Assembly: GCA_964507055.1 (NCBI GenBank)
Contig: CAZDOJ010000001.1
Span: 593,313-657,312 of the forward strand
Direction of reading: 5' to 3'
Length of the DNA stretch: 64,000 nucleotides
Source: an uncultured Gammaproteobacteria bacterium
Lineage (GTDB): Bacteria; Patescibacteriota; Microgenomatia; Levybacterales; UBA12049
Part shown: positions 353 through 49,867 of the stretch, piece by piece
Layout of the letters: the number at the start of each line of letters is the position of its first letter
Position numbering within the stretch: position 1 is the stretch's first letter
Program-made: the position numbers and the translations under genes
The notes under the pieces: model-generated
Seen by the model: the letters and a program-made list of their open reading frames with translations, nothing else
What the model was told of the DNA's origin: nothing
The model's database searches: none

Positions 353-835
353 TTATCGAGTTACCTGGATTGGAGGAGTATATGCACTTGGTGCTGATAC
401 AGTAATTCTATTATTAGTATCTCGTGTTATTGTATAGCCTGTGTTCCATGAGCCTGCACATTCGCCAGCCTCGACACCTGCTTGGTCATTGAGAGTTGGA
501 TCCATTGGAAGTGCTGGCATATAACTTGGTACTAACTGTGCACACAATGCACCTAATGTAGCACCACTTTGTAATGGGGTCGCTGTATCGACTGTCAAAG
601 CTTGCACTGTCGCAGGAAGTTGACCTGTATTGGATGCAGTGTATTGTCCAATTGCATTGAGGACTTGTGTCACATCACTTCTTCGTTTTGTGTCATTTGC
701 TTGTCCAAATTGTCTTGCTGGATTGATAGCGATAAGTGTAATTGCAAGAAGAATTGCGAGAATACCGATAACTACGAGCAATTCGATGAGGGTGAAACCT
801 TTTTGATCTTTATTAAATATTTGTCGGACAGTCAT
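353..835 (-). CDS. Type IV pilin, major-pilin candidate (copy A), with a prepilin N-terminal cleavage/methylation motif
   Basis: N-terminus MTVRQIFNKDQKGFTLIELLVVIGILAILLAI carries the class III signal (G|FTLIE). A hydrophobic alpha1 helix follows, and the C-terminal region has two Cys (D-region-like disulfide). Confidence 0.8.
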   Translation of the reverse strand: MTVRQIFNKDQKGFTLIELLVVIGILAILLAITLIAINPARQFGQANDTKRRSDVTQVLNAIGQYTASNTGQLPATVQALTVDTATPLQSGATLGALCAQLVPSYMPALPMDPTLNDQAGVEAGECAGSWNTGYTITRDTNNRITVSAPSAYTPPIQVTR

Positions 836-2016: not shown

Positions 2017-2493
2017 TTAGCGAGTTACTTGGATTGGGCCAGAGTAAGCACTTGGTGCTGATACTGTAATTCTATTATTTGCGTCTTTTGCAATCGTGTA
2101 ACCAGTATTCCAAGCTCCAGCACAATCTGCTGCTTCAACTCCTGCTTGATCATTCAATGAAGGATCCATTGGAAGTGCTGGCATATAACTTGGTACTAAC
2201 TGTGCACAAAGATTTGGGAAAGAAGTACTATTTAGATTAGCTGATCCACTTGCGAGAGCTTGGACTTCTGGAGGCAGTTGACCTGTATTGGATGCTGTAT
2301 ATTGTCCAATAGCATTGAGAACTTGTGTCACATCACTTCTTCGCTTTGTGTCATTTGCTTGTCCAAATTGTCTTGCTGGATTGATAGCGATAAGTGTAAT
2401 TGCAAGAAGAATTGCGAGAATACCGATAACTACGAGTAATTCGATGAGGGTAAAACCTTTTTGATCTTTATTAAATATTTGTCGGACAGTCAT
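2017..2493 (-). CDS. Type IV pilin paralog (copy B). The N-terminal 74 aa are identical to copy A, the core is divergent, and the C-terminus is conserved.
   Basis: MTVRQIFNKDQKGFTLIELLVVIG... is identical to copy A through ...SNTGQLP, then diverges. The C-terminal motif LCAQLVPSYMPALPMDP...NNRITVSAPSAY is conserved. Confidence 0.8.
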   Translation of the reverse strand: MTVRQIFNKDQKGFTLIELLVVIGILAILLAITLIAINPARQFGQANDTKRRSDVTQVLNAIGQYTASNTGQLPPEVQALASGSANLNSTSFPNLCAQLVPSYMPALPMDPSLNDQAGVEAADCAGAWNTGYTIAKDANNRITVSAPSAYSGPIQVTR

Positions 2494-2595: not shown

Positions 2596-3735
2596 CTATT
2601 TCCCGAGCACTATTGAAACATCAATTGTTCCCTCTTGTCTCTCCTGTACAGTTACATCAGGTTTTATTTTGCGGACTTCATCAAGAACTGCATTGCGTGC
2701 TGTTTGACTCACTGCTCCTGAGAAAGAAACTATTGTACTTGTTGTCGACACACCAGTCTTTACCTGTGTTGTAACTGACTTAAACTCATATGCTTCAAGC
2801 GATGTTCGTAAAGCTTGAGAAGAACTTGATGCTGAAGCACTAACAATTTGTACTGAAAAATCGTCGAATCGAGCTGCTTCTTCAGTGGGTGAAACAGGTG
2901 CAACAGTATTTGCTACTTGGGGCATAACCGTCGGTTGCGTGGATGATTGCGGTGATGGAGCTGGTTGTATACTCTGCATATACACAAGTATCAATACAAC
3001 AACTAAGATTACAAAAATACCTATCATTGCAATTAATCGTTTCTTATTTGTCTTTGGAGGTTCCTTTCCTAATTCTTCCTGAACCACATCAACAGAATCA
3101 TCGCTTTCTGCTTTTTTTTGTGGTGTAAAAGCGGTTTGTGTTTTAATGTCATATTGCTTTAATCCAGCGGCTTTCTGCAATGTAGCATTTACCATACCGA
3201 GGTCCATTACAGGCTTTGAGCTTAAACCATTACCGAGAACCATTCCGGGAAATACTGAGGAAACAGTAAAGCCAAGTTTCTCAAATCCCTTTTCTATGCT
3301 GGTATACAAATCTTGGTTTACTGCACAAACACGTATACCATTTTTGAGAGGAAACGTCCGACTAACAACATTTTCATATGGGACATGTTCAATAAAAAGA
3401 TCAATCTGTGGTTTAAGGTCCTCAAGCGTAACTTTTGGTGTAACTGGGGTCGCGGGCTGTCCAGGTTTTGTAGGTTGTGATGCAGGTTGACTTGGGATAA
3501 CAAAATCTTTGACAAAATATGCATTGTCACTGAGAACAATAATAAAATTAATCGGAGCAATTTTACCATTTGTCACAAAAATCTTTATTTGGTCTTGCAA
3601 GGCATCATCATCAAGAACATCTAAATCACGTACAATATTAGGAGGGAAACGATATTCCACAACAGAACGCAAATACGGTGAATATAGTTGAAATTTATCT
3701 TTTTGTACGTAGATTACTCCTGTTTTTACTGTCAT
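2596..3735 (-). CDS. Pilus-assembly-associated bitopic membrane protein (PilM/PilN/PilO-like role inferred from context only)
   Basis: 379 aa with a roughly 215-aa cytoplasmic N-domain, a single TM (LIAMIGIFVILVVVLILVY) and a Pro/Thr-rich extracytoplasmic C-domain. It is tightly packed in the pilus operon. Confidence 0.45.
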   Translation of the reverse strand: MTVKTGVIYVQKDKFQLYSPYLRSVVEYRFPPNIVRDLDVLDDDALQDQIKIFVTNGKIAPINFIIVLSDNAYFVKDFVIPSQPASQPTKPGQPATPVTPKVTLEDLKPQIDLFIEHVPYENVVSRTFPLKNGIRVCAVNQDLYTSIEKGFEKLGFTVSSVFPGMVLGNGLSSKPVMDLGMVNATLQKAAGLKQYDIKTQTAFTPQKKAESDDSVDVVQEELGKEPPKTNKKRLIAMIGIFVILVVVLILVYMQSIQPAPSPQSSTQPTVMPQVANTVAPVSPTEEAARFDDFSVQIVSASASSSSQALRTSLEAYEFKSVTTQVKTGVSTTSTIVSFSGAVSQTARNAVLDEVRKIKPDVTVQERQEGTIDVSIVLGK

Positions 3736-3736
3736 A

Positions 3737-4165
3737 TTAAAAAACTTCTCTTTCCGATGTAACCGTCAATAAATTATTAACATAAGTTGCTTGAACTTCA
3801 ACAGTCCTTTTATAGTTACCAACCGTTCCTGTTGATGTAATTATATAGGGACTCACTGAGGTACCATTCCCTCCTACCACTATAACTGCTTCTCCTTGCC
3901 CAATTGTCAAAGTCTCACCTGCGTAAGAAGGTGGTGGAGTTCTCAGAACTCTTAATAATGCGTTTTCAGATCCACTCTGTGCTACTTGATACGCAAGTTC
4001 TCCTTGTTGCTGCCGTGTTCCGCTATTGGAATTTACCAAAATCATAACGATTGCCGCTGAAGTAATCGTCAACCCAATAATCATAAAGAACAATAGCGTG
4101 ATGAGTGCCTGTCCCTTTTGATATGAGAAAGATACATAATTTATTTGTCTATCAATTCTCATCAT
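3737..4165 (-). CDS. Minor pilin / pseudopilin-like protein lacking Glu5 (PilX/GspK-like)
   Basis: N-terminus ...QKGQALITLLFFMIIGLTITSAAIV has a prepilin-like G|Q cleavage context followed by a hydrophobic helix. It is 142 aa. Its stop overlaps the start of the next gene. Confidence 0.5.
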   Translation of the reverse strand: MMRIDRQINYVSFSYQKGQALITLLFFMIIGLTITSAAIVMILVNSNSGTRQQQGELAYQVAQSGSENALLRVLRTPPPSYAGETLTIGQGEAVIVVGGNGTSVSPYIITSTGTVGNYKRTVEVQATYVNNLLTVTSEREVF

Positions 4166-4716
4166 TATTGTCTAGCTAAAGTTGTTTGGAATGATCTCGA
4201 TTCATCTCCTGACGGTTGTTGGATTCTACTAACGACAGTGAAGTTTACTCGAATCGTATCGTTATTCGTTCCCGCCCCAATTCTTTGGAACGTCAAGCCA
4301 GTAAGATATGAATTTACACCATTTAGGACATTCACTTCTCCGGTAGTGCCATTGGTCAAACGGAGATTGCCATTACCGTCTAGGCTATATGTATAGTTTA
4401 TAGAATTTACCCGTATTTGCAAAGTGGAGGTCTGAGATCCCGGAGATGCTGGAATTACGATAGCATCATTTGTATTAATTGATTTCATATCATAAAACAT
4501 CTTTCCCATGATATATCTGCCATCTTGATCAACGGTTGATGTAGCTTCAGATTCTAATTGTACTTCAACTATCTGTCCAAACATCGTACTCATGATGCCA
4601 ACAAGGATAGAGAGGATCCCGACATAGAGTACAAGTTCAATAAGCGTAAACCCTTTTTGTCGTTTCTTCCGAGCAGCCTTTGCAGCAAAAAACTTCTGAA
4701 AAAATTTCATATCCAT
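4165..4716 (-). CDS. Pseudopilin / minor pilin with a prepilin-type N-terminal cleavage/methylation domain
   Basis: KKRQKGFTLIELVLYVGILSILV carries the canonical G|FTLIE motif. It is 183 aa. Confidence 0.7.
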   Translation of the reverse strand: MDMKFFQKFFAAKAARKKRQKGFTLIELVLYVGILSILVGIMSTMFGQIVEVQLESEATSTVDQDGRYIMGKMFYDMKSINTNDAIVIPASPGSQTSTLQIRVNSINYTYSLDGNGNLRLTNGTTGEVNVLNGVNSYLTGLTFQRIGAGTNNDTIRVNFTVVSRIQQPSGDESRSFQTTLARQ

Positions 4717-4772: not shown

Positions 4773-6560
4773 CTACGATCCGCCTGAGCCACTACCTGAA
4801 TTGCCTGATTGATTTTCTTGTAAGGCTTTAATCAAAGTGGAGATATCTGATGTTAGGATATCGTATCCTTCTTTTGTTATGCTTTTCCCTTTTTGTTTAT
4901 TTAGTTCTAATTGCATCGCTTTCAAGGTGGCAACTGCAAGTTTATTTCCTAAAGGCTGCTTATTACTTAGTGTTGCTTTTTCAGCAAGCTCAGTTTGGAG
5001 TAAAAAAGCAGTATAGAAGATGACATTTTTAATTTGTTTTTGTTTATAAAGTTGTTTAATATCATTTTTAAGAAGAGCAAATGTTACTTCGCGAAAAAGT
5101 TCAGTCTTAATATTATTTATATTTCCTTTATCGTACCTGAGCTTATAAGAAGTCACCGCATCTGGAGTTAAAGTACCTGTGTAAGAAGCAGCTTTCATTT
5201 CTCCTTCTTTAGTAAAAATGTACTCATCCAGCTGAAAATTTGGATCTATTGAAGAATAAACTTCGACAGTATAGTTATCTGATTCAGGTTTTGCAAAATA
5301 GAATACTTTAACTGCTGAGGTATTTGTATTGAACGGTTCATCAATAACTTGTGCAGGACTATATTCCAAATAGCTTTCCCCATACGTCCTTCCATTATCG
5401 TCTCTTACTGTTACCTCTGCATCCTTATCTACCACATAGACAATATAGGAAAGATCCGTATGTGAAGGCTCATACCTTCGAACTGACGAAGCCTGATTTG
5501 CATATGATGCCAAGGTAGTTCTATTAAATAAAGGATCATTGATCTCAAAAGTATTACCTATTTTGCCTTTTGCAACTACAAAATGCATACCAGGAGCATC
5601 CACTTGTAATATATTAGGAATTCCTTGATTTAGATCATTTGTAACTTTATTAGTATCAAAATAGATATTAGAATCATATTCTAAAGCGTCATAGTTAAAA
5701 TTTGGATTCTGAACTCTAGATTCTTTAGCTAAACGTCCAAGAGTAGGCCATATAACTCCAAGATTACGATTATAGCCTTTATTATTTTTTAGCCATGTAT
5801 TCAAAGTACCTGGAGTAATCTCTGTTCCGTTTGGCAATTTATCTATTTTGTGATACTTCAGTACCATTGCAAGTGATGAGGTAGCGCAACCACACTGTGC
5901 CATAGTTCTGCCACAACCATATTGAATTTGATCCCCAGCAGCAAAGACATCACTCTCCCATATGGGATTATTATCGTTATATGGAGCAGTCCCTTGTTTA
6001 AATGAAGGTACATTTAAACTAATTCCACCAGAAGGCGGCGTAACAATAGGTTTAGGCGTTACTGATGGAGATATTGGATTAAAGTCGGTATCAATAGCTG
6101 TAGTTAAGAATGGTTCAATGTCATCATCTTTTGTTTTTGAAACTATATAGAGCGTATCTATTGTTTTATTATTTGCACATTTATTTATGAAAGTAAAGTT
6201 AATTATTTGACGGCCTTCTCGCTCATATACTGAAGGATCTAAAAGTTTTCGTATTTCTAATGGTGGAAGCTTCTTAGTATTACATTCAGAATCGAATATA
6301 AACTTTTTTCCTGTATATAGATTAGATATTTCAAGAATATCTCCTACACTATTATTGCCAGGGATATGCGGATCATTATTAACAAAAACATATATATTTT
6401 CCGGTGGATTGTTAACATTTACACTAACTGTAGCTATTGTCTCTGCTGGTGTATTTTCAGGGATACTGAAACTACTTATAACACTGGCAAGACCAGTGGC
6501 ATATGCTGTAGAGTAAGCTGAAAAGAATACTAAAAGAAAGAAAATAAATAATTTAAGCAT
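4773..6560 (-). CDS. Secreted multi-domain protein with a C39-like (Peptidase_C39_2-type) papain-fold cysteine peptidase domain
   Basis: Has a signal peptide (MLKLFIFFLLVFFSAYSTAYA). The motif QYGCGRTMAQCGCATSSLAMVL supplies the Cys, and a downstream PGMHFVVAKG supplies the His, as expected for C39_2. The C-terminus has a Gly/Ser-rich tail. Confidence 0.6.
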   Translation of the reverse strand: MLKLFIFFLLVFFSAYSTAYATGLASVISSFSIPENTPAETIATVSVNVNNPPENIYVFVNNDPHIPGNNSVGDILEISNLYTGKKFIFDSECNTKKLPPLEIRKLLDPSVYEREGRQIINFTFINKCANNKTIDTLYIVSKTKDDDIEPFLTTAIDTDFNPISPSVTPKPIVTPPSGGISLNVPSFKQGTAPYNDNNPIWESDVFAAGDQIQYGCGRTMAQCGCATSSLAMVLKYHKIDKLPNGTEITPGTLNTWLKNNKGYNRNLGVIWPTLGRLAKESRVQNPNFNYDALEYDSNIYFDTNKVTNDLNQGIPNILQVDAPGMHFVVAKGKIGNTFEINDPLFNRTTLASYANQASSVRRYEPSHTDLSYIVYVVDKDAEVTVRDDNGRTYGESYLEYSPAQVIDEPFNTNTSAVKVFYFAKPESDNYTVEVYSSIDPNFQLDEYIFTKEGEMKAASYTGTLTPDAVTSYKLRYDKGNINNIKTELFREVTFALLKNDIKQLYKQKQIKNVIFYTAFLLQTELAEKATLSNKQPLGNKLAVATLKAMQLELNKQKGKSITKEGYDILTSDISTLIKALQENQSGNSGSGSGGS

Positions 6561-6614
6561 ACTTAATATATTATTATTATACTAATGTATTCTTATATTA
6601 TATGTCAATAACTT

Positions 6615-9092
6615 TTATTGTGAGTAATTCCAAGTAATATCTTGTAAGACAGGAGTTACTGTTTGATCTGTTAAAGACTCAAGTGTCACTTTATATCTAA
6701 AACAGCGCTCTGGATTAACAAAGGCCCCACTCATAAAGCTTCCAAATGGTATTTTATCAGAAATAACTGTTGTTACAGGAGTATAATAAGAAGTGTCACT
6801 CCCATCCGGCCCAATATATGTGTAACCCGAAGTTGGACAACTACCATTGGATAGTCCTTTTAACCCTACTTGAATTTTAACAGATGTATTTGTAGGCTGT
6901 ATAATATTCGCAAGCAGTCGATTAAATGCTCTTAAAATTGTGCTTGGCTCCACCGAAGCCGTATCAAATACCTGAGATTCAAACGTCCCACTTGGCATAA
7001 AAATTGCATTGTCCGGTCCACCTTGGATAATCTTTAACTCATTTGCAGTCGTATTTGCTACCATATATACATAGTTATCATAATCCGCTTCAGATACTGA
7101 AGTCAGATCATTAAACCCTTGATTGAAATCTACCCCTGAACAATACGTTGGTGTCGCCTCTGTCTCAGTATTGAGAACCTGATATTCTTGAGCATTTCCT
7201 CCACCAGATATACCATCTTTTCCTACCAGTACAGCACGTTGCCCATTAAGTACAGTCAGAGATCGCCGTGGATATAATTCTGAAGCACCAGAAGGTGCAG
7301 GGGAAGCTCCATTATAAAAACCTGACGAAGGTGTGCTGCTTCCTGTAAGAAATGTTGGCGAAGTTTTAGAAGTTGTGTTAAGGATATAAAATTGCTTACT
7401 ATCACTTCCTCCATTTGAGGAAATATATGCCCTACTACCATCTGCATTGGAGAATACTGAATTAGAGGCTTCTTCTGTACCTGATCCTGTATTAAAATCT
7501 TTACTCCCGCTTACTTTCCATGCTGTTGCTCCACCAGAAATACGTCCACAACTATTTCCGGTTAAGGAACTTCCACTTGTAGGTGCTGTCGTTACGTTGA
7601 CGATCTCAAATTCAGGATTTGTTACGCCTCCCACAGCGACATACACATATGTATTGTTTCCAACTTTAACTGGAAAAATATCATTTGTGGCAAGCAATTC
7701 AATGTTTCCTCCATCAGAACAATCGTTGTGGATTGGAGAGGTCGTATCTCCCCAAGAAGTTCCTGACTGTCCAGAATCATACTTCGCAGCTGTTCCTGGC
7801 GAACCTGGTCGACATTCATAACCATCAAGTTCGATCCTACAGCCGTACATATCAAGTCCATTTGATGTTGATTTACTATCGATATTTGCCAAATTAAACA
7901 CGTATAGATATCCACCTGAAGCAACATATCCACGATCCCCTAATACCGCGACGGATGAAGCACCATAACTATAAGGCGATTGATCATTACTGGAACTTGC
8001 AATACCGTTATATCTTCTAGTATTAAAAAAAGTTTTGTATTTATAGAGTTTATTAACTGGATCTTGATACTCTCCACTTGTTGTATTGTCATTGGCACTA
8101 TTCCCATCATTTACCCAAACAACAATAACTTCTTTATCAGGAAGATTTGTTCCGAGAATTGCATACGTGTTTCCACCAGAGGACTTATAATATTTCACAT
8201 CGGTTGTTGAAAAATTATTATCAAGTCCTGTACCTGATTGTGGAGCATATCCTGATGCATACTCTGAAGCATTCATCGTAAATTTGCCTCTTAGTGTTGT
8301 CGCAGGCGTGTCAGTATTTGCAGTTACATTTACATAAGCTAATTTTGCTGAGCTTGTAGCATAAGGTGCTGTTGCTACGAATACATCATTAGGTTGAGCC
8401 GTTGTAGCACTTGCCGTAGCAGCAACAGCAACAGGCGGTCCATCAGGCAAATCAATTGTAGCTTCTCCTCCTAAATCATTCAAAGCAAAGGCGGGCGTAC
8501 ACCATTTGGCTTTATTGTTATTTGCCAATTTTACTTCCCCACCGGAATCATTTGTCACTTGAATATTTACTCCAGTTCCTGCGTCAAATTGTGCTTTTGT
8601 TGTATGAGAGGCAGTAAGATTACTTGTTCTCGTCAAAAAGATTGTTGAGGTAATCGATGAAGGAATTGGTCTTGTCCAAGAAACAGTAATATCTGCTTTT
8701 CTAGTCGAGGGATCAAGTGTATTTCCTGCAGAAGTTGAAGCAATTGCTCCGGCTGATGTTCTATAAACACTTGATAAAATAACCTGTTGCGTAAATCCTG
8801 CAGAAGTTGAAGCAGAACCTGAGGATAATGACCATCTGTTACTGACAATCACAGGATGATAGGGAGATCCGATAGTTAAGCCTGAAAGTGTTGCCCAATC
8901 ACTATCTCTGACACTTTTGACGGCAGTTTCTGTTTCTTTCATCAGTGCAATTGCCTGGAGACGCTGCTCCTGCTGCGGTTTTCCATCACGTGACGCGAGA
9001 AGTCCTGAAACCAATCCTGGCAAGATAAGTGCTGCCAAACCAATGGTTAAAACCAACTCAATAAGTAATTGTCCTCGTTGCAATTTTTTCAT
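6615..9092 (-). CDS. Giant pilin-like protein (825 aa) with a prepilin-type N-terminus. It is a candidate tip adhesin or minor pilin.
   Basis: The N-terminus MKKLQRGQLLIELVLTIGLAALILPGL fits G|QLLIE with Glu5. The remainder is a large Ser/Thr/Gly/Asn-rich, beta-type region. Confidence 0.65.
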   Translation of the reverse strand: MKKLQRGQLLIELVLTIGLAALILPGLVSGLLASRDGKPQQEQRLQAIALMKETETAVKSVRDSDWATLSGLTIGSPYHPVIVSNRWSLSSGSASTSAGFTQQVILSSVYRTSAGAIASTSAGNTLDPSTRKADITVSWTRPIPSSITSTIFLTRTSNLTASHTTKAQFDAGTGVNIQVTNDSGGEVKLANNNKAKWCTPAFALNDLGGEATIDLPDGPPVAVAATASATTAQPNDVFVATAPYATSSAKLAYVNVTANTDTPATTLRGKFTMNASEYASGYAPQSGTGLDNNFSTTDVKYYKSSGGNTYAILGTNLPDKEVIVVWVNDGNSANDNTTSGEYQDPVNKLYKYKTFFNTRRYNGIASSSNDQSPYSYGASSVAVLGDRGYVASGGYLYVFNLANIDSKSTSNGLDMYGCRIELDGYECRPGSPGTAAKYDSGQSGTSWGDTTSPIHNDCSDGGNIELLATNDIFPVKVGNNTYVYVAVGGVTNPEFEIVNVTTAPTSGSSLTGNSCGRISGGATAWKVSGSKDFNTGSGTEEASNSVFSNADGSRAYISSNGGSDSKQFYILNTTSKTSPTFLTGSSTPSSGFYNGASPAPSGASELYPRRSLTVLNGQRAVLVGKDGISGGGNAQEYQVLNTETEATPTYCSGVDFNQGFNDLTSVSEADYDNYVYMVANTTANELKIIQGGPDNAIFMPSGTFESQVFDTASVEPSTILRAFNRLLANIIQPTNTSVKIQVGLKGLSNGSCPTSGYTYIGPDGSDTSYYTPVTTVISDKIPFGSFMSGAFVNPERCFRYKVTLESLTDQTVTPVLQDITWNYSQ

Positions 9093-9093
9093 A

Positions 9094-9594
9094 CTAATTT
9101 ATACTTGATATGACTCCATATCTATTTAATCGTATCACCTTTTGTTCATTCGTCATGCTATCGCGTACCGTAATAATAGCGGATGTACTTGCATAATTTG
9201 TGACTTCGCCGCTTCCTTTCGCAAATGTTATTGAAGAACTTGCTGAAGCAATAGTGATAGTCAAAGTATTTTGATATGTAACCGCAAAGTTAGCCGACGC
9301 ACTTGCAACATATGTACCTTTATATAAAATGTATCGATGATTTGTAGAATCAAAGCGGATACCATAATTATCAATTACGCCCGTACCACTTGTGTCACCT
9401 GTCATTGCTTTCGCCTGCTGATCTTTTAAATCTGCGACAAATGTATTAAAAGTCGAATTCAATTGGGATTTATTTTGAAAACTAAAAAGGTTTACTGTCG
9501 CGATGCTTGCTAGCACAGCAAAAATCGACATGACGAGAAGAAACTCAACAAGTGTAAATCCTTTTTGATTTGAATGATTGAAAAGATTTTTCAT
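9094..9594 (-). CDS. Pseudopilin (GspH/FimT-like) with a prepilin-type N-terminal domain
   Basis: NQKGFTLVEFLLVMSIFAVLASIA motif. It is 166 aa. Confidence 0.7.
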   Translation of the reverse strand: MKNLFNHSNQKGFTLVEFLLVMSIFAVLASIATVNLFSFQNKSQLNSTFNTFVADLKDQQAKAMTGDTSGTGVIDNYGIRFDSTNHRYILYKGTYVASASANFAVTYQNTLTITIASASSSITFAKGSGEVTNYASTSAIITVRDSMTNEQKVIRLNRYGVISSIN

Positions 9595-9602
9595 CGTACA
9601 TT

Positions 9603-10655
9603 TTACCTCGCTCCTACTTGGCCGATTAATTGGTAAATTGGTGCGATAATTGCCATCATCATTCCTCCGATTAATACACCAACGCCTACAAGCATAATAG
9701 GTTCTATGAGAGCAGTGAGGGTTTTTAATGTACTTGAGACTTGATAATCGAGATATTCTGAAACATCCAGCATCGCTTTGTCCAAAGATCCACTACGCTC
9801 ACCTGCTTCAATAATTTTGATCATAATTGGAGGAATCACCTTTTTACTATCGCGTAATCCCTCAGACAACTTCTTCCCACCAAACACAACAATTTTTGTA
9901 TGTTTGATCGCATTTTGAATATTCTTCTTGATAACCACATCCTGCGTTAATTCCAAGGCTGTAGTAATCGGAATACCTGCTGTGAGAAGTAGATACAAAC
10001 TTCTGGTAAATCTTGTTAAATCAATTTGCTGCGTCAAAAGTGAAATCAATGGCAAAGAAGTAAGTGCTCGAACAATTGCCATGCGATTTTGTTTGTAAAC
10101 AAAAATTACAGATGCAATCATAATTGTGATAACAGCAATAATTGGAATTGTATATGTAAGTAATGCATTGGAAAGAAATATCATAATCTGTGTAGGCAGT
10201 GGCAATTCTACGTTCAATCGAAGGAATACGGTCGCAATTCGAGGCACAACCACAACTAATATAACCACCATTACAAGGATAAAAACAATAACAATAAATA
10301 TTGGATAAATGAGTGCTGATTTGATCTTATCGTTAAATTCTATTTCTTTTCGTATACTGAGCTTTAAATCTTCAAGTGCTGTATCAAGTGTACCCGAATC
10401 TTCGGAGGCTTTAATAATATTGACTGTAACCGGATCAAATATTTTGGGGAACTTTTGAAATGTTGTATACATATGCTGTCCCTGTGCCAAGTCAGAACGC
10501 ATCTCCATAAGCAATTTTTTGGGTCCGCCTTTTGCATCTTCCAATAATGACTCTACCGTTTCAAGAATAGGAATACCTGATGAAAGCATCGTATGAAGAT
10601 TACTAACTAATGCAATTTTATCGCTCGCAGAAAGTGATGTATTATATTTTTTCAT
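9603..10655 (-). CDS. pilC: Type IV pilus inner-membrane platform protein PilC (GspF/T2SS-F family)
   Basis: Two T2SSF-like repeats and three TM segments. It sits immediately downstream of pilB. Confidence 0.85.
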   Translation of the reverse strand: MKKYNTSLSASDKIALVSNLHTMLSSGIPILETVESLLEDAKGGPKKLLMEMRSDLAQGQHMYTTFQKFPKIFDPVTVNIIKASEDSGTLDTALEDLKLSIRKEIEFNDKIKSALIYPIFIVIVFILVMVVILVVVVPRIATVFLRLNVELPLPTQIMIFLSNALLTYTIPIIAVITIMIASVIFVYKQNRMAIVRALTSLPLISLLTQQIDLTRFTRSLYLLLTAGIPITTALELTQDVVIKKNIQNAIKHTKIVVFGGKKLSEGLRDSKKVIPPIMIKIIEAGERSGSLDKAMLDVSEYLDYQVSSTLKTLTALIEPIMLVGVGVLIGGMMMAIIAPIYQLIGQVGAR

Positions 10656-10658
10656 AGA

Positions 10659-12344
10659 CTAAAGTGCTTCAATCTTTGTAACACGGAGTACTTCTTCAAT
10701 TGTAGTTTGACCTGTTACGACTTTGCTCAAACCATCATCAAGCATGGTTGTCATACCACCTTCAACCGCTTTTTTAAGAATAAGATCAGAGTCATTATTT
10801 TCAGTAATTAATTTTTTAATATCATTGTTTACTTCTAATACTTCAAAGATACCTAGTCGACCGGAATAACCAGTATTGTGACAAACTTCACAACCTTTAC
10901 CTTTGTAAATACGTATATCTTTTTTTGTACCAAAATGTTTTTTAATTGCTTCTTTTGGCAAATTCAAAATCAATTGATCTGAAGTAACATCCTGTGATCC
11001 TTTACACATTTCGCAAATCTTACGAACAAGTCTTTGTGCGATGATAACATTTACGGTAGAGGCAACGAGAAATGGTTCAACATTCATATCTGTTAAACGT
11101 GGTAACGCACCAGAAGCATCATTGGTATGAAGTGTAGACAAAACTAAATGCCCTGTAAGTGCTGCGTTTACAGCAATTCCAGCCGTCTCAGAATCACGAA
11201 TTTCTCCGACAAGAATCACATTAGGATCTTGACGAAGGATTGACCGTAAACCTGAAGCAAAAGTTAAATTTGTTTTAGCATTTGTCTGAATCTGATTAAT
11301 ACCCTTCAATCGATATTCAACTGGATCTTCAATTGTTGTGATATTTTTCTCACGTGAATTAATAATCTTCAACACTGAATAGATAGAAGTTGATTTACCT
11401 GAACCTGTTGGACCGGTTGAGAGGATTAAGCCAAAAGATTTTTTGAAGGCATTGGTTACTTTCTCTAAATCTTTTTGACTCATACCAAGATCTGCCAAGG
11501 AAAATTGTCTGAAATGAGAAGCAAGCAAGCGCATAACAATCTTCTCACCATAAATAACTGGCAGGATAGAGACACGCAAATCTAAGTTCTCTTCTTCAAG
11601 TTCAATACGAATTTTTCCATCCTGTGGTGCCATGTGCTCATCTGTACGCAAACTTGCGAGCACTTTTATACGCGTGGATATCTGATCATGGAGTTTCTTA
11701 GGAAGGGCTAATACATCATGCAAAATACCATCCACACGGAAACGAACCAATGTATCCTTTTCTTCCGGTTCGATATGAATATCAGAAGCACGATCTTGAT
11801 ATGCGTATTGAATAATCAAATCTACAATCTTGGCAATCGGGACATCAATAGAAGCAGTTTTACCTGCAGTACGAACTTGCTCAGAAACAAGCGTATCAAA
11901 AGTCTTTTGCAAATCTCTTCGATACAGCCAAAGTTTGTTATAGATATCACGTTCTGTTGCCAAATACGCAAACACTTTTTGCCCGGTTTTCTTGGCGATC
12001 ATTTCCTGAATCAACGTATTTTTCGGATCAACCATCGCAACTTTAATACCATCTTTATCACGGGCGAAAGGAATTGCTTTATATTTACGGGCCAACCGTT
12101 CGGGAATAATACGAAATGCCTCTTCAGGGATAGAGATCTTTCCAAGTACAACAAATGGGATTTTAAACGCATCAGAGATAAGGACACCGAGGTTTTCGTC
12201 TGTGACAACATCTTTCTCAATTAACGCATCTGTGAGCGTAATATCAGAATTCTTTGCATACTCAAGGACTTCTTCAAGTTTTTTTTGATCGGCGATTTTA
12301 ACATTAAGAAGAAGCGTCTTTAACTGATCATCTGTAATCAACAT
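10659..12344 (-). CDS. pilB: Type IV pilus assembly ATPase PilB (GspE family)
   Basis: Walker A GPTGSGKST, Asp and His boxes, and a tetracysteine Zn motif (CEMCKGS...CEVCHNTG). It is 561 aa. Confidence 0.9.
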   Translation of the reverse strand: MLITDDQLKTLLLNVKIADQKKLEEVLEYAKNSDITLTDALIEKDVVTDENLGVLISDAFKIPFVVLGKISIPEEAFRIIPERLARKYKAIPFARDKDGIKVAMVDPKNTLIQEMIAKKTGQKVFAYLATERDIYNKLWLYRRDLQKTFDTLVSEQVRTAGKTASIDVPIAKIVDLIIQYAYQDRASDIHIEPEEKDTLVRFRVDGILHDVLALPKKLHDQISTRIKVLASLRTDEHMAPQDGKIRIELEEENLDLRVSILPVIYGEKIVMRLLASHFRQFSLADLGMSQKDLEKVTNAFKKSFGLILSTGPTGSGKSTSIYSVLKIINSREKNITTIEDPVEYRLKGINQIQTNAKTNLTFASGLRSILRQDPNVILVGEIRDSETAGIAVNAALTGHLVLSTLHTNDASGALPRLTDMNVEPFLVASTVNVIIAQRLVRKICEMCKGSQDVTSDQLILNLPKEAIKKHFGTKKDIRIYKGKGCEVCHNTGYSGRLGIFEVLEVNNDIKKLITENNDSDLILKKAVEGGMTTMLDDGLSKVVTGQTTIEEVLRVTKIEAL

Positions 12345-12389: not shown

Positions 12390-12749
12390 TTATGCCTTAC
12401 TAACCTCGAGGATTTTTGCATATAACTTATCAAAATCAAAAAAACTTTTATTGACATATCCTTTCGCTCCAAGCAGGCGTGCTTTCTCAACATCTTTTTC
12501 TTGACCGAGCGTTGAGAATACCAATGTAGGGATATTTGTCCCTTCTTTCTTCATCGTTTCGAGAACTTCAAAACCATCCTTCTTTGGCATAATAATATCA
12601 AGTAGAACTAAATCAGGATGGAATGAAGCAATCTTTTGTAACCCTTCTTCTCCATCAGCGGCGACATCAATTTCTATTCCCTTTTCTTTTAATTTCGTGG
12701 AATAAAAACCGCGGAAAAATGTATCATCTTCAATGAGCAGAATTTTCAT
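12390..12749 (-). CDS. Standalone response regulator receiver (CheY/PilH-like) protein
   Basis: MKILLIEDDTFFRGFY...DLVLLDIIMPKKDGFEV...KGYVNK is a full REC signature. At 119 aa it has no output domain. Confidence 0.85.
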   Translation of the reverse strand: MKILLIEDDTFFRGFYSTKLKEKGIEIDVAADGEEGLQKIASFHPDLVLLDIIMPKKDGFEVLETMKKEGTNIPTLVFSTLGQEKDVEKARLLGAKGYVNKSFFDFDKLYAKILEVSKA

Positions 12750-12761
12750 AAGCTATATCTA

Positions 12762-13152
12762 TTATACCTTAATAGTACTAATTGATTGCAATTCCTCAAT
12801 TTGTGGATGGAGGTCAATTTCATTGTCTTGTGTTTCAAGTTGCGTGATTGATGTCTGCATCTGTGTCACAGCTTTTACGAGAGCTTGCTGGATTTCAGGT
12901 GTAATAACAAAGCCCTCATCAATCTTGGCTTTGAAGATTCGTTCGATCAATCGGGAGAGTTGACCAATTGAGTTGTACTCCATCATCAAACTCTGACTTC
13001 CCATTGAATGTGCTGCCCGATGAATCGTTTCAACCATTTCTTTGTCATCCATATTAAGCGATCCAATACCTTGGAGTTGTTCCATATATGGTTTTGCTGA
13101 TTGAAGATAGAGAGACTTATACTTGAGTTTGTCTTCGCTTGAAAGTGGCATA
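12762..13152 (-). CDS. Hpt-like (histidine phosphotransfer) small helical protein. The ORF can extend to 13268, but the start at MPLSSEDK (13152) avoids overlap with the divergent gene.
   Basis: AAHSMGSQSLMMEYNSIGQLSRLIE resembles the Hpt HxxKG phospho-histidine helix. The assignment is tentative. Confidence 0.4.
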
Positions 13153-13226
13153 GTAATGCACTTACTATACTCAGAATTAGAAATGTTGTCAACGAATGCC
13201 TGAGGTATGATAATATTAAATATACT

Positions 13227-14417
13227 ATGCCCTCTTTTGTCGTCTGGTTTAAGGATGCTGATACACATGAATCTTCGCTTCTAGGAAAAGCTAGTAAACA
13301 TATTGGGAATCTTACACAAGCCGGGTTTCCTATCGCTCCTGGATTTATTATCACTTCAAAGGCATATCACACATTCCTTAAAGAAAATAAGCTTGATGTA
13401 AAAATCAAAAAGCTTTTAACTACCGTAAACATAGAACATCCTGAATCCGTTTATCAAGTTGCTCGACATGTACAAGATCTTATTTCACAAGCATCTATTC
13501 CGGAGAATGTAGCTCAAGAAATAAAGGATTTCTACAAACGCCTCAACACAAAAAAAGCTTCACTTGAAGCACATACAACAGTCAAGCCGTCTCATAAAAT
13601 TCTCAAACAACAAATCAGCGACTTTGAAAGTTTGGCGAAAGGATTGAAAGAAGCATGGACACAACATTTTGAACCAAATCACTTCTGGAAACGTCATGAA
13701 CATGGACATGATCATCTCGATACTGGTGTTGAAGTACTAATCCAATTGGATCTAAATGCTGTTAAGACAGGGATCATGCATACTGTAAATGTTCATAATC
13801 AGAGTAAAGACACTCTCTCCATTACTGTTAGCCATCCGCATACCTCGGATGAATATACTCTAACGAAGAAAAACCTGATGTTAATTAAACGAAAACTCTC
13901 CCACTATGGAAAAGCTCCAAAACTTACCTATCAGGAACTCTTTAAGATTGCAAAACTTGGCAAAGCAATTGAGCAACATCTCTACTTCCCGCAGCAAATC
14001 CAATGGGCAATCGTTGATGACCAAGTATATGTACTTCATACAAAACCATTTTCAGATCTTCCAAAAACGAAAAAGGAATTAAAAAAGAAACTTGCTGCAG
14101 CTCGAGGAATCTCTATAACCAAAACAATTGGCTCAGGTCCAGTAACTATTATTCAGCATGAACATGATTTAGATAAGATACATGAACATATTGTTGTAGT
14201 ATCCACGATTAAAAAAGAGCAATTAAATAAACTGAAAAAAGCAAAAGGAATTATTGCTGAAAGAGGTGATACTCATTCAGAAGTTTCAGTCCTCATCAGA
14301 GAACTTGGGATACCCACTATTTACGGAGTTACGAACGCAACCAAGAAACTGAAAAATGGCTATGTTATCACAATTCATGCAGGTAAAGGTGAAGTTTATC
14401 TCGGTGGATTTCATTAA
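13227..14417 (+). CDS. PEP-utilising enzyme family protein: a PpsA/PPDK N-terminal nucleotide-binding domain plus a mobile phosphohistidine domain, with no C-terminal TIM-barrel
   Basis: The N-terminus LLGKASKHIGNLTQAGFPIAPGFIIT...WAIVDDQVYVLHTKP matches the PPDK_N fold. The C-terminus GSGPVTII...IAERGDTHSEVSVLIRELGIPTIYGV matches the PEP-utilisers swivel domain, with the conserved His. Confidence 0.7.
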   Translation: MPSFVVWFKDADTHESSLLGKASKHIGNLTQAGFPIAPGFIITSKAYHTFLKENKLDVKIKKLLTTVNIEHPESVYQVARHVQDLISQASIPENVAQEIKDFYKRLNTKKASLEAHTTVKPSHKILKQQISDFESLAKGLKEAWTQHFEPNHFWKRHEHGHDHLDTGVEVLIQLDLNAVKTGIMHTVNVHNQSKDTLSITVSHPHTSDEYTLTKKNLMLIKRKLSHYGKAPKLTYQELFKIAKLGKAIEQHLYFPQQIQWAIVDDQVYVLHTKPFSDLPKTKKELKKKLAAARGISITKTIGSGPVTIIQHEHDLDKIHEHIVVVSTIKKEQLNKLKKAKGIIAERGDTHSEVSVLIRELGIPTIYGVTNATKKLKNGYVITIHAGKGEVYLGGFH

Positions 14418-29995: not shown

Positions 29996-31285
29996 ATGAC
30001 TCTACCTCTAACAATTCTTGGCAAAACAATCTCTCAAATTAGTCGATCTCTTAATCGTGGCAATGGCTCTACATGGCCAGGACATATTGCTTTAAAAGGA
30101 AACAAGAATTTCATAAAGGACTTCCTGAAAAACTCAAATATCAAAACCATTATTGTTGCTGGAACGAATGGAAAAACCACAACTTCTTCTCTATTGAAAA
30201 CGGCATTAGAAAAGCAAGGATATAAAGTTTTGCAGAATGAATCAGGTGCAAACTTACTAAATGGTGTGGCATCGACGCTTATTTTAAATACCAATCCTTC
30301 AGGTAAACTGACTCATGATTTTGCGATATTTGAAGTTGATGAGAATGCACTACCGCAAGTTTTAAAACAAGTAACTCCTGATTATCTCCTCATGTTAAAC
30401 TTATTTCGTGATCAATTAGACAGATATGGTGAGATTCATACAATTGCTAAGAAATGGAAAGAGACAATAGCAGCTCTCCCTGCCGCAACAAAACTTATTC
30501 TCAATGGTGATGATGCACAGATCGCCTATTTAGGATTTACTGATGATAAACAATTACAGTCTTCAAGATTCTATTTTGGACTTAAGGGAACAACTGAAAA
30601 AAAGACGCAACAAGCGGCTGATTCTACTTTCTGCCCAAAATGCGGAAGTCCTCTGAAGTTTGAAGAAACAACATTCTCCCATCTCGGTAAATGGTCTTGT
30701 CCTAGTTGTGGATTGAAGCGACCTACAATAAGTCAAAATAGCTTTGAAACATATCCTCTCTCAGGCACATATAATAAATACAATATGCACGCTGTTGTTC
30801 TAACTCTTCGGGAAATAGGAATGACAGAAAAGGCAATTGCTGAAACATTGAAAGATTTTAAACCAGCATTTGGAAGACAGGAAATAATAAACTACAAAAA
30901 TAAGAACGTACAACTATTTTTATCAAAGAATCCGACGAGTTTTAATCAGTCTTTTGCAACGATTAAAGAATTGAAAGCCTCGACACTTTTAATAGTTCTT
31001 AATGATAGAATTCCTGATGGAAGAGACATCTCATGGATATGGGATACTGATCTTTCGGGAATTGAAGATTTTAAACATATACTTGTTGCTGGAGATAGGG
31101 TTTATGATATAGCATTACGGGTTAAATACGAAAATTACACGAATATTAAAACTTTTGAAAATTTACACGAAGCCATTACAACTGGAATTGAATTAACGAA
31201 AAATACTGAAACATTTTATATTCTGCCAACATACTCTGCTATGCTTGATTCAAGAAAAATCTTAACAGGTAAAAAAATATTGTAA
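29996..31285 (+). CDS. murT: Lipid II isoglutaminyl synthase subunit MurT (Mur-ligase domain plus a DUF1727 C-terminal domain)
   Basis: IIVAGTNGKTTTSSLL P-loop, a Cys4 ribbon (CPKCGSPL...CPSCG), and an operon partner gatD downstream. Confidence 0.8.
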   Translation: MTLPLTILGKTISQISRSLNRGNGSTWPGHIALKGNKNFIKDFLKNSNIKTIIVAGTNGKTTTSSLLKTALEKQGYKVLQNESGANLLNGVASTLILNTNPSGKLTHDFAIFEVDENALPQVLKQVTPDYLLMLNLFRDQLDRYGEIHTIAKKWKETIAALPAATKLILNGDDAQIAYLGFTDDKQLQSSRFYFGLKGTTEKKTQQAADSTFCPKCGSPLKFEETTFSHLGKWSCPSCGLKRPTISQNSFETYPLSGTYNKYNMHAVVLTLREIGMTEKAIAETLKDFKPAFGRQEIINYKNKNVQLFLSKNPTSFNQSFATIKELKASTLLIVLNDRIPDGRDISWIWDTDLSGIEDFKHILVAGDRVYDIALRVKYENYTNIKTFENLHEAITTGIELTKNTETFYILPTYSAMLDSRKILTGKKIL

Positions 31286-31325
31286 ATACTTAATGTCATT
31301 CCCGTGCAGACGAGAATCCAGAATT

Positions 31326-31880
31326 ATGAAGAAACCAATTACTTTTATTACAGGAAATAAAAATAAAGTTGCTTATACAACACGCTATACATCCATTCCC
31401 CTCATGCATAAAAATCTGGATATACCAGAGATCCAATCTCTTAATGTTCGTAAAGTAGTAGAGTTGAAAGCAAGAGAAGCGTATAGACAACTAAGGCAAC
31501 CTGTGCTTGTTGAAGATACTGCATTAGTCTTTCATGAATTAGGCAAACTCCCTGGTACATTTATCAGATGGTTTCTTGAAGAGATTGGGAATGAAGGAAT
31601 GTGCAGGATGCTTGACGGTAAAGAACGAAGTGCAACCATAACCGTAGCATTTGCACTATTTGACGGAGAAACTATACATATATGTGACGGAATAAGACAT
31701 GGTTCGATTGCAGATCATCCGCGAGGAGAATATGGATTTGGATGGGATCCAATCTTTATCCCAGAAGGTTTTACAAAAACTAATGCTGAGCTTACATCTG
31801 AAGAAAGAAGTTCAATTTCAGTAAGAAAAATTGCTTTAAAAAAGCTGGAGAAAATATTAACTGGAAAGAAAATATTATGA
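31326..31880 (+). CDS. Non-canonical purine NTP pyrophosphatase (Ham1/RdgB/ITPase family), paralog 1
   Basis: ITFITGNKNK ... FGWDPIFIPEG motifs. Start taken at MKKPITF. Confidence 0.75.
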   Translation: MKKPITFITGNKNKVAYTTRYTSIPLMHKNLDIPEIQSLNVRKVVELKAREAYRQLRQPVLVEDTALVFHELGKLPGTFIRWFLEEIGNEGMCRMLDGKERSATITVAFALFDGETIHICDGIRHGSIADHPRGEYGFGWDPIFIPEGFTKTNAELTSEERSSISVRKIALKKLEKILTGKKIL

Positions 31881-32425
31881 AACCTATCACTTATATTACT
31901 GGGAACAAACATAAACTAGAACATTTCATGAGATATGCTGAATTCCCTGTAGATCATGTAGATCTGGATTTAACCGAGATTCAGTCATTGGACACAAATA
32001 AAATTGTAGAGCATAAAGTAAGAGAAGCATACGCAAAAGTTAAAAAACCAGTTCTTATTGAAGATGTCTCGCTCACATTTCATGCATTGGGGAAATTGCC
32101 TGGCCCGTTAATTAAATGGTTTTTAGAATCCATAAAAGCTGAAGGTCTTTGCCGATTAATCGATAATTATAAAGACCGAAGTGCCACTGCTTCAGTCATA
32201 TTTGCCTTTTATGATGGAACGACTGTTACATTATTTAGCGGGGAAATGCATGGCACGATTGCTCCAAAGCCCCTCGGTGATGGATTTGGATGGACGCCAA
32301 TTTTTATCCCAGATGGTTGGAATAAGTCATATGGAGAGATGAATGTTCAAGAGCAAAAAGAAACTTCGATGAGACGAATTGCTGTCGAAAAATTAAATAA
32401 ATTCTTTAAAAATTATGAAATATAA
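31877..32425 (+). CDS. Non-canonical purine NTP pyrophosphatase (Ham1/RdgB family), paralog 2
   Basis: ITYITGNKHK ... FGWTPIFIPDG. About 50% identical to paralog 1. Its start overlaps the upstream stop (ATGA). Confidence 0.75.
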   Translation: MKPITYITGNKHKLEHFMRYAEFPVDHVDLDLTEIQSLDTNKIVEHKVREAYAKVKKPVLIEDVSLTFHALGKLPGPLIKWFLESIKAEGLCRLIDNYKDRSATASVIFAFYDGTTVTLFSGEMHGTIAPKPLGDGFGWTPIFIPDGWNKSYGEMNVQEQKETSMRRIAVEKLNKFFKNYEI

Positions 32426-33176
32426 CGTAAAAATCGGCTGGTTATATCCACAACTCATGAGTACCTATGGTGACAGAGGTAATATCATGGTACTTCAAAA
32501 ACGCTGTGAATGGCGAGCAATTGAAGTTGAAATACTCCAAATAGATGCATCGACGAGTGATAAAGATCTACGTTCTATTGATTTGCTTTTTGGTGGTGGT
32601 GCACAGGATCGTGAACAAGAGATTGTTATGGAAAATCTTATGAAAAAGAAAAAAGCCATTAGAGATCTCATTGAAAATAATATCCCAGCACTTTTTGTTT
32701 GTGGATCTCCACAACTCATGGGTAACTATTATGAACCTTCGGAAGGGAAAAGAATTGAAGGATTAGGAATATTCGATATGTATTCACAGCATCCTGGTCC
32801 AAAAGAGGATAGATTGATTGGTAATTTAATTGCTTCAATTCAATTCCCTGAAGCTATTGCTAATACAAAAGTTGTCGGATTTGAAAATCACGGTGGGCGG
32901 ACATATCTTGGAGATAAGGTAAAACCTTTTGCAAAAGTTCTAAAAGGATTCGGGAATAATGGTAATGATGGAACTGAAGGAGTTGTCTATAAAAATGCCA
33001 TAGGTTGTTATCTCCACGGTCCCCTTTTGCCTAAGAATCCTCAGATTGCTGATTATCTTATTCAAAAAGCTTTGGAAATTAAATACAAAAAGCAAATTTC
33101 TTTAGAGCCGATTGATGACTCCCTTGAAGAGAAGGCTCAAGAAAGTTTATTAAAAAGGTTTCATATACACGATTAA
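32415..33176 (+). CDS. gatD: Lipid II isoglutaminyl synthase glutaminase subunit GatD (CobB/CobQ-like GATase)
   Basis: GWLYPQLMSTYGDRGNI...CGSPQLMG...H is a class-I GATase triad region. Confidence 0.8.
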   Translation: MKYNVKIGWLYPQLMSTYGDRGNIMVLQKRCEWRAIEVEILQIDASTSDKDLRSIDLLFGGGAQDREQEIVMENLMKKKKAIRDLIENNIPALFVCGSPQLMGNYYEPSEGKRIEGLGIFDMYSQHPGPKEDRLIGNLIASIQFPEAIANTKVVGFENHGGRTYLGDKVKPFAKVLKGFGNNGNDGTEGVVYKNAIGCYLHGPLLPKNPQIADYLIQKALEIKYKKQISLEPIDDSLEEKAQESLLKRFHIHD

Positions 33177-49049: not shown

Positions 49050-49120
49050 CTCAAAAATGATACCACAAGCACAAAGTTTGGTAAAGCTATAGAGATTTGA
49101 TAAGCATCTTTTGACATTTT

Positions 49121-49867
49121 TTGCTAGAATATCACTACATGAGACAACCAGCAGAAAAATCACGATTCAAAGAGCACCTACAAAAAGAAGCATCAAGAAA
49201 TGTTATCTTTGCAATTTTGGGAATTATTCTCGTTGTTGCTCTTCTTATAATCTTTGGAACCAATATATTAGTAAGCTTTAGTTTGCTTGTAGGGAAAATA
49301 TCTGGCACTGATGACCCCCCTGCTGAAACGCAACAAAATGTCACCTATATCGCTCCTCCAACACTTGATCCGACGGCGGAGGCTACAAGTAGTGCTGCTG
49401 TTGTCATAACCGGATATGGAAAGCCAGACCAACGGATAGATCTTTATCGAAATGGGAAAATGATAAGTAAAACAACTGTAAAAAGTAATAACACCTTTCG
49501 ATTTACGAATGTTACATTGGTGGAAGGCGTAAATAGCTTAAAAGCAAGAGCAGTTACAGATGATAATCAACGAAGTAACTATTCAAATGAAATTAGGATA
49601 TCTTTGCTTAATAAATCCCCTGAACTTTCGGTAGACTTTCCACAAGATGGTCAAGTCTTTAAGAAAGACCAAAGTCCAATTAAAATTAGTGGAAAGACAG
49701 ATCCAGGCGTAAAAATTACAGTAAATGATTTTAGAGCTATTGTTGATAGTAGTGGAAATTATAGCTATTTGTATAATTTAAAGGATGGAGACAATAATCT
49801 AAAAATTGCAGCAACAGATAATGCAGGAAATCAGACGACTAAAGAGATTAACATTCGGATAGAATAA
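49121..49867 (+). CDS. Hypothetical membrane-anchored protein with extracytoplasmic Ig-like (Big-type) beta domains
   Basis: N-terminal TM (VIFAILGIILVVALLIIFG), then beta-rich repeats (VVITGYGKPDQRIDLYRNGK..., IKISGKTDPGVKITVND). Confidence 0.45.
   Translation: MLEYHYMRQPAEKSRFKEHLQKEASRNVIFAILGIILVVALLIIFGTNILVSFSLLVGKISGTDDPPAETQQNVTYIAPPTLDPTAEATSSAAVVITGYGKPDQRIDLYRNGKMISKTTVKSNNTFRFTNVTLVEGVNSLKARAVTDDNQRSNYSNEIRISLLNKSPELSVDFPQDGQVFKKDQSPIKISGKTDPGVKITVNDFRAIVDSSGNYSYLYNLKDGDNNLKIAATDNAGNQTTKEINIRIE

Follow-up and report, generated by a model that had tools for sequence, protein, structure and literature searches.

Background

Stand-alone peptidases of the C39_2 type (Pfam PF13529, Peptidase_C39_2) have as their prototype 3ERV, a "putative C39-like peptidase" from Bacillus anthracis. 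PMC10318531 treats C39_2 proteins as uncharacterized single-domain peptidases and gives no established substrate for the prototype, and a Microgenomates genome paper (PMC7143001) merely lists a secreted C39 peptidase among few exported peptidases. Here we consider one such gene, an open reading frame at positions 4773 to 6560 of a 64,000-nucleotide stretch of contig CAZDOJ010000001.1 (the window), which lies within a type IV pilus gene cluster. A sequence-only reading of the window had described its product as a secreted C39_2-type cysteine peptidase encoded between pseudopilin genes, and had suggested from this position that it acts on pilins or an envelope substrate rather than exporting a bacteriocin.

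Other pilus operons also code for non-pilin proteins: PilY1 is a product of the fimU-pilVWXY1E operon, and TcpF and CofJ, which are recognized via flexible termini, come from type IVb pilus operons. Attachment to other microbes is the presumed way of life of Patescibacteria, and type IV pili are the attachment organelle best supported for them (PMC9894109, PMC11623550); the second of these sources also describes PilX1 and PilX2, two large minor pilins found in Saccharibacteria. No C39_2 peptidase in an accessory role in a pilus operon turned up in the literature searched, and a keyword search of the Saccharibacteria pilus study (PMC11623550) gave no mention of such an enzyme.

The locus described here is set apart by a distinct architecture and a recurrent embedding in pilus operons; its function is inferred. 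We tentatively favor the reading that the gene encodes an exported, active C39_2 endopeptidase that would assist the pilus system as an accessory enzyme directed at the envelope. Its likeness to PilY1, TcpF and CofJ, and to the wall hydrolases of envelope-spanning machines, is one of position and logic: an apparently Sec-exported non-pilin encoded among minor pilins, with a variable outward module. Homology to PilY1, TcpF, CofJ or machine-dedicated wall hydrolases was not found by Pfam and Foldseek searches, and the C-terminal propeller domain of PilY1 (Pfam Neisseria_PilC) gave no Pfam or NCBIfam match; in contrast to PilY1, the propellers seen in relatives of our protein are N-terminal and of the Kelch or Vgb_lyase type.

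The catalytic domain

The open reading frame starts with ATG, ends with a stop codon at 4773-4775 and encodes a protein of 595 residues. Both catalytic-type motifs pointed out in the sequence-only reading occur in the translation, AQCGCATSSLAMVL at residues 222-234 (extended, AQCGCATSSLAMVLKY at 222-237) and PGMHFVVAKG at residues 323-332 (extended, DAPGMHFVVAKGK at 321-333). The PF13529 profile matches residues 221-343 with an E value of 1.2e-6 and a score of 29.6 bits, above the gathering threshold of 24, and precomputed PF13529 annotation is present on nearly all homologs. Modeled alone as residues 178-365, the catalytic domain reaches a predicted local distance difference test score (pLDDT) of 92.7 and a predicted TM-score (pTM) of 0.91, and the model has a papain-like core. 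A Foldseek search of the Protein Data Bank (PDB) with this model has 3ERV as its best match (E 1e-4, probability 1.0), followed by streptopain (SpeB), the peptidase domains of PCAT1 and ComA, and AvrRpt2; every significant match is a papain-like cysteine peptidase.

The predicted nucleophile, general base, third triad member and oxyanion-hole residue all fall within this domain (Table 1). The predicted general base is present in all homologs that cover its column and the predicted nucleophile in all but one. In that homolog (P0055) a serine replaces the catalytic cysteine, which may be a serine-nucleophile variant, an inactive form or a sequencing error. The sequence-only reading had named a fold without a papain-like core, or a dyad that varies among orthologs, as findings that would speak against it; because the fold is papain-like and the catalytic residues are conserved, neither was found. 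Profile, papain-like fold and catalytic residues together place the protein in PF13529, and the profile and the fold matches with 3ERV, streptopain, PCAT1 and ComA agree with its description as a stand-alone C39_2-type peptidase.

Sequence searches of the PDB, with the single protein and with a family profile, found no significant match to the catalytic domain (6MPZ and 3ERV appear at E 0.02-0.4), and the N-terminal columns of the family profile matched Kelch and CBM66 structures, which are modules of the relatives and not of the query. Scans of the 595-residue protein gave no match in NCBIfam and none in PHROGs at E<=0.01. Judged by profile, model and alignment, this is a real gene for a papain-like C39_2-type cysteine peptidase, and its predicted active site is intact.

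The protein shares with the 3ERV prototype the same Gln/Cys/His/Asp arrangement, and both are apparently stand-alone, exported and not fused to a transporter; ours adds a conserved beta-sandwich and a helical bundle, an N-terminal module that can be exchanged and a pilus-operon location. SpeB, a secreted broad-specificity cysteine protease of family C10, belongs to the second-best group of structural matches and is likewise papain-like and secreted, but there is no sequence-level kinship, the TM-score is about 0.45, and our protein is without the SpeB-type pro-domain.

Architecture and export

Throughout the family the layout is a signal peptide, an exchangeable N-terminal module, the C39_2 domain, a beta-sandwich and a helical bundle, with the conserved part corresponding to residues 180-585. 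A full-length AlphaFold2 (AF2) model built on 87 sequences has an overall pLDDT of 78.8, exceeding 90 over residues 180-585 and poor in the N-terminal module; a Foldseek search with it returned generic beta-sandwich and helix-bundle matches at E >0.01.

The only hydrophobic segment, residues 1-21, ends in AYA before a threonine, and the protein has no further segment resembling a transmembrane (TM) helix. Because this segment is signal-like, and a similar one is found in 74 of the 83 homologs with complete starts, export of the peptidase by the Sec route is likely, which fits the term "secreted" used in the sequence-only reading.

The N-terminal module (residues 22-150) is an orphan. It has no Pfam match, a large-database search with the domain alone returned nothing, and a local search finds it in proteins P0001-P0003. 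Relatives at the same operon position carry a Kelch or Vgb_lyase-type propeller in its place, and across the family the slot is taken by DUF1080/CBM66-like lectins, Kelch propellers, Vgb_lyase/SGL-type propellers or a GH43-like domain, the DUF1080/CBM66-like lectins and the propellers (carbohydrate-binding types) being the most common. The query organism and that of P0004 come from the same sample series, SRR142713xx (L089-L091, L002); their operons are alike and their peptidases differ in the N-terminal module, and therefore module variants coexist in one habitat.

On the other side of the catalytic domain, the beta-sandwich finds only generic Ig-like or CopC-like folds, and the helical bundle has a weak FIMAH match (PF22888, E 0.0066) and helix-bundle fold matches such as Avd. 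A literature search on FIMAH gave only fimA/fimH papers. The Gly/Ser tail named in the sequence-only reading is there as ...SGNSGSGSGGS at the C-terminus. Among 212 family proteins, a Gly-rich tail ending in ...GG(S) is confined to P0001-P0007, the proteins of the pilus-operon clade described below, while the peptidase of locus L012 ends similarly in ...GTGDGS. As the pilus-operon clade is monophyletic in a neighbor-joining tree, the tail amounts to about one evolutionary event and a weak second one.

Table 1. Positions of the peptidase gene, its predicted domains and residues, and the surrounding pilus genes in the window
Feature	Position	Strand	Basis
Whole gene, putatively exported C39_2-type cysteine peptidase, 595 aa	4773..6560 (including stop)	-	Open reading frame list; Pfam PF13529 above gathering score; 89 homologs
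Signal-peptide-like N-terminus, aa 1-21 (MLKLFIFFLLVFFSAYSTAYA before T)	6498..6560	-	Sole hydrophobic segment; cleavage site judged by eye
Orphan N-terminal beta-rich module, aa 22-150, two conserved Cys	6111..6497	-	Common only to P0002, P0003; AF2 pLDDT ~60
Pro/Thr-rich linker, aa 151-178	6027-6110	-	After N-terminal module
Papain-like C39_2 catalytic domain, aa 179-362	5475..6026	-	AF2 model (scores in text); Foldseek against PDB
Gln189, predicted oxyanion-hole residue	5994..5996	-	85/85 homologs covering column; codon checked
Cys225, predicted nucleophile, starts helix 225-236	5886..5888	-	85/86 homologs covering column; codon checked
His326, predicted general base, in beta-strand 325-334	5583..5585	-	87/87; codon checked
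Asp342, predicted third triad member, INDP motif	5535..5537	-	87/87; codon checked
Conserved beta-sandwich domain, aa 363-480	5121..5474	-	AF2 strands 359-476, pLDDT >90; kept across family
Conserved C-terminal helical bundle, aa 481-585	4806..5120	-	AF2 helices 494-506, 513-532, 536-556, 563-585
Gly/Ser-rich C-terminal tail, aa 586-595, ends ...GGS	4776..4805	-	P0001-P0007 only
Response regulator (12390-12749) and Hpt protein (12762-13268), head of cluster	12390..13268	-	
PilB-type assembly ATPase (MshEN + T2SSE)	10659..12344	-	L001 ortholog with PF05157 and PF00437; 94% identity to L004
PilC-type platform protein (T2SSF)	9603..10655	-	L001 ortholog with PF00482; 93% identity to L004 ortholog
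Minor pilin (N_methyl; GspH/ComGD-like)	9094..9594	-	Profile matches
825-aa pilin-like protein, N-terminus RG|QLLIE and large C-terminal part	6615..9092	-	87% identity to L004
Pilin (N_methyl), invariant downstream neighbor of peptidase gene	4165..4716	-	Profile matches
142-aa pilin-like protein (KG|QALIT) and 379-aa single-TM protein	2596..4165	-	Both conserved operon members
Major-pilin-like gene	2017..2493	-	N_methyl match
Second major-pilin-like copy	353-835	-	N_methyl match; 84% identical to 2017-2493 copy

Gene neighborhood and distribution of the family

A search of 5.8 billion proteins found 89 homologs, and a profile search of 1.84 billion cluster representatives (50%-identity clusters) gave 1,300 matches at E<=1e-30. 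The homologs are nearly confined to the ultrasmall Patescibacteria (Levybacteria, Woesebacteria, Roizmanbacteria, Microgenomates and metagenome-assembled genomes labeled "Saccharimonadales"), and the window holds no second family member. Many metagenome-assembled genome records with this Patescibacteria-type family (L004, L006, L009-L012 and others) are titled "uncultured Gammaproteobacteria" or "Pseudomonadales" and look mislabeled. An IS200-like Y1 transposase gene (PF01797) lies close to the family gene in five loci (L061, 11425-12153; L062, 1547-2224; L049, 8293-8970; L081, 6526-7179; L013, 7798-8475).

In the window the peptidase gene is one of a co-directional series in the order Hpt, response regulator, PilB, PilC, minor pilin, 825-residue pilin-like protein, C39_2 peptidase, pilin, 142-residue pilin-like protein, 379-residue membrane protein and major pilin. 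The placement "between pseudopilin genes" in the sequence-only reading is thus borne out, by the prepilin-like reading frame upstream and the N_methyl pilin downstream. Gaps of 54-56 bp separate the peptidase gene from its neighbors, with no terminator-like site between the genes; the promoter and terminator scans performed at chance level overall and are used only for this absence. The 825-residue protein has a non-canonical prepilin-like N-terminus and no domain in a Pfam scan; by analogy with PilX1 and PilX2 of the Saccharibacteria, its probable identity is that of a large minor pilin of the tip type.

Seven loci of the query's own clade have readable flanks (the window, L004, L084, L085, L086, L087 and L088), with core identities to the query of 52-73%. 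The peptidase gene directly follows the pilin-like protein of about 830 residues in all seven, and all keep the order PilB, PilC, minor pilin, large pilin, C39_2 peptidase, pilin, while the N-terminal module of the peptidase is exchanged among them between the orphan domain, a Vgb_lyase propeller and a Kelch propeller. L012 and L061/L062, two further lineages, also hold a member of the family amid minor pilin genes, with the genes arranged differently. Judged by conserved co-linear position, the clade thus has an accessory place in the type IV pilus system and the family at large does not: the association with pili is genuine and recurrent, yet derived and confined to a minority.

Comparing the window with L004 gives 73% identity for the peptidase core and 87 to 94% for PilB, PilC and the large pilin (Table 1). 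Faster divergence of the core and swapping of modules are as expected for a surface-exposed interaction protein. Three of the seven clade loci (L085, L086 and L088) have an extra gene after the peptidase gene. The spot is variable: in L085 (12349-13392) and L086 (9864-10673) the extra genes directly after the peptidase gene encode single-TM proteins without a Pfam match. In L088 two copies of the large pilin flank the peptidase gene.

Possible function and substrate

The reading that we tentatively favor can be set out as follows. The product would be a Sec-exported, catalytically competent papain-like endopeptidase, with Cys225 as the predicted nucleophile, His326 as the base, Asp342 as the third member of the triad and Gln189 in the oxyanion hole. 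It would be built as a modular extracellular hydrolase, in which an exchangeable N-terminal targeting module is followed by the catalytic domain, the conserved beta-sandwich and the helical bundle. In this lineage the gene would have been recruited into a type IV pilus operon directly behind a large tip-type pilin, and the peptidase would most likely be produced together with the pilus. Its most likely activity would be to cleave peptide bonds of envelope material, either where the pilus passes through the wall of its own cell or where it meets a partner cell, with peptidoglycan stem peptides or cross-bridges and wall-associated proteins as candidate substrates. The fixed place of the gene in the pilus cluster of this lineage suggests such cutting of envelope material where the pilus works.

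Several indirect clues point toward the envelope. The pilus operon of L061 encodes a second exported protein, in which the same Vgb_lyase-type propeller is fused to an M23-like domain with visible HxxxD and HxH motifs. The N-terminal modules most common in the family, which are of carbohydrate-binding type, also count here. Surveys of phage lysins (PMC8223927 and a bioRxiv preprint, 10.64898/2026.04.25.720813) list Peptidase_C39_2 among the lytic catalytic domains from phages of Gram-positive hosts, and the leading viral structural matches comprise one tape-measure segment (E 1e-6, TMq 0.59) and two multidomain "lysozymes". Phage lysins and virion-associated wall hydrolases with C39_2-like domains follow the same logic of binding module plus catalytic domain; in contrast to them, our gene is cellular and chromosomal, with a Sec-type signal and no PHROG match, and the lytic activity of C39_2 is itself mostly a bioinformatic assignment. 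The genome encodes MurT/GatD and a LysM protein, which we read as signs of a Gram-positive-type wall. The two L061 proteins with this propeller, one of them with the M23-like domain and the other with C39_2, are encoded at 5855-7507 and 8960-11329, and the same pair of architectures is found in L034 (open reading frame ending at 2066, minus strand).

Other observations weigh against this reading. The TM-scores of the fold matches are modest, 0.45-0.59, and the nearest solved structures (SpeB, PCAT1, ComA and AvrRpt2) are proteases of proteins or peptides, with no CHAP or NlpC/P60 wall amidase among the top 50 PDB fold matches. CHAP and NlpC/P60 Pfam profiles likewise gave no match, and the viral structure search brought up one NlpC/P60 viral protein, at E 0.5 only. 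The M23-like match in L061 scores 27.7 bits against a Pfam threshold of 28.7, one bit short. A promoter-like site directly upstream of the peptidase gene (6608-6579) would allow its independent expression, and since the slot after the large pilin takes unrelated inserts in relatives, the position could be a permissive insertion site. Above all, about 75 of 80 species-level loci have no PilB, PilC or pilin within 10 kb, and about 50 of these unlinked loci have a housekeeping synteny in common (with a divergent methyltransferase, a downstream LepB, ParB, L21, RodA/FtsW and IleRS); because so many loci lack a pilus linkage, the basic function of the family is not pilus-specific. The clues are therefore split between an envelope or peptidoglycan-peptide target and a protein substrate, and it is the indirect ones that favor the envelope. 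As for the sequence-only reading, its argument from position holds for the clade, where the slot is kept, and for the lineages in which it recurs, but not for the unlinked majority of the family; of the two targets it offered, action on pilins has found no direct support and the envelope substrate is the one favored.

The unlinked loci and their housekeeping synteny, the unrelated genes accepted by the slot in L085, L086 and L088, the promoter-like site and the plain listing of a secreted C39 peptidase in the Microgenomates genome paper (PMC7143001) would all be accounted for by an extracellular peptidase of general housekeeping or nutritional use that has no functional tie to the pilus and came to lie in the operon by chance, through insertion at a permissive and variable site. 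We nevertheless regard this as rather unlikely, as the slot is retained in all seven loci over the full range of core identities, at least two more lineages acquired a pilus linkage with other gene orders, and the clade-specific Gly-rich tail goes along with the relocation. Quite unlikely, in our judgment, is a non-pilin in the manner of PilY1 or of TcpF and CofJ, which would either attach to the tip complex of minor pilins or be set free by the pilus, show its variable N-terminal module to a partner cell and deliver the peptidase as a tip-borne effector. The gene does lie among minor pilins directly behind a large tip-type pilin, its product is variable at the N-terminus and conserved at the C-terminus with propellers in close relatives, the flexible clade-specific tail could act as a docking peptide, and the core diverges fast; set against this are the lack of sequence or fold similarity to PilY1, TcpF or CofJ noted above and the presence of the conserved C-terminal domains in the non-pilus majority as well, so that they are not pilus-docking domains as such.

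A maturation protease that trims the 825-residue pilin-like protein, or other pilins, outside the membrane would explain why the gene adjoins the large pilin in every clade locus and stands between two copies of it in L088, and the canonical C39 enzymes are processing peptidases (PMC10318531). Most family members have no pilin neighbor, however, an exchangeable lectin or propeller targeting module is hard to square with a fixed endogenous substrate, and a conserved Gly-Gly processing site was not seen in the neighbors, no search aimed at one having been made; we find this very unlikely. A role as prepilin peptidase was considered and rejected, as PilD-type enzymes are polytopic membrane aspartic proteases active at the cytoplasmic face, and our protein combines a single signal-like segment with a Cys/His site. 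Least credible of all, to the point of being nearly discounted, is a bacteriocin or double-glycine (GG) leader peptidase as in the classical C39/PCAT proteins. A distant C39 kinship can be seen in a PF03412 match (E 7.5e-4, 19.8 bits) and in the papain-like fold and Cys/His chemistry common to our protein and the C39 domains of PCAT1 and ComA. The PF03412 score is, however, below the gathering score of 22, and the architecture contradicts such a role: there is neither a fusion to an ATP-binding cassette (ABC) transporter nor an ABC neighbor, the Sec-type signal contrasts with the cytoplasmic peptidase domains of PCAT proteins, and no small GG-leader peptide genes were seen in the operon. On this point the sequence-only reading, which had set bacteriocin export aside, agrees with our results.

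The envelope-directed accessory enzyme that we favor has a bolder version, to which we give little credence. The secreted C39_2 peptidase, in some lineages together with an M23 enzyme on the same propeller, would be the exchangeable "warhead" of the pilus operon, riding or released at the pilus tip beside the adhesin pilin and locally cleaving cross-links in the wall of the host bacterium, or its surface proteins, for attachment or for uptake of DNA or nutrients; exchange of the N-terminal module would retarget it to other hosts, and the ...GGS tail would be a docking or self-processing element. A conserved, fast-evolving, module-swapping and apparently secreted peptidase beside a presumed tip pilin is a concrete candidate for breach or remodeling of the envelope at the contact site. 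Identifying its substrate would provide an annotation for one of the few hydrolases that these reduced genomes secrete, covering some 1,300 clusters, and a function for C39_2; if the gene should encode only a housekeeping peptidase, the finding would be an ordinary one.

Other features of the window

The two major-pilin-like copies are identical over their first 74 residues, and a central stretch at about residues 75-97 is replaced. DNA repeats at 599-848 and 2257-2506 are 94% identical, and a PF04199 cyclase gene lies between the copies. The pair could represent pilin variation by duplication or gene conversion. Near the head of the pilus cluster, a 396-residue protein (13227-14417, plus strand) has only PPDK_N and PEP-utilizers mobile domains, without the C-terminal catalytic domain; an equivalent stands beside the pilus regulators in L001 and L084, and that of L085 is full length, at 739 residues.

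The murT-like (29996-31285) and gatD-like (32415-33176) genes, both on the plus strand, are split by two tandem Ham1/ITPase genes (31293-31880 and 31877-32425). The product of 47862-49163 (minus strand) matches Peptidase_M23 at residues 268-307 and has a sub-threshold ATG16 match at residues 67-145 that we read as a coiled coil; we interpret it as EnvC-like, a more conventional candidate for a wall hydrolase or activator in the same genome. Finally, the region 49800-63000 has a low GC content, 0.30-0.33 against about 0.37 elsewhere, and carries surface-glycan genes (Wzy_C, GT87, PMT_2, a TylF-type methyltransferase, WavE, GDPD and a nucleotidyl transferase). This glycan cluster may be variable or acquired.

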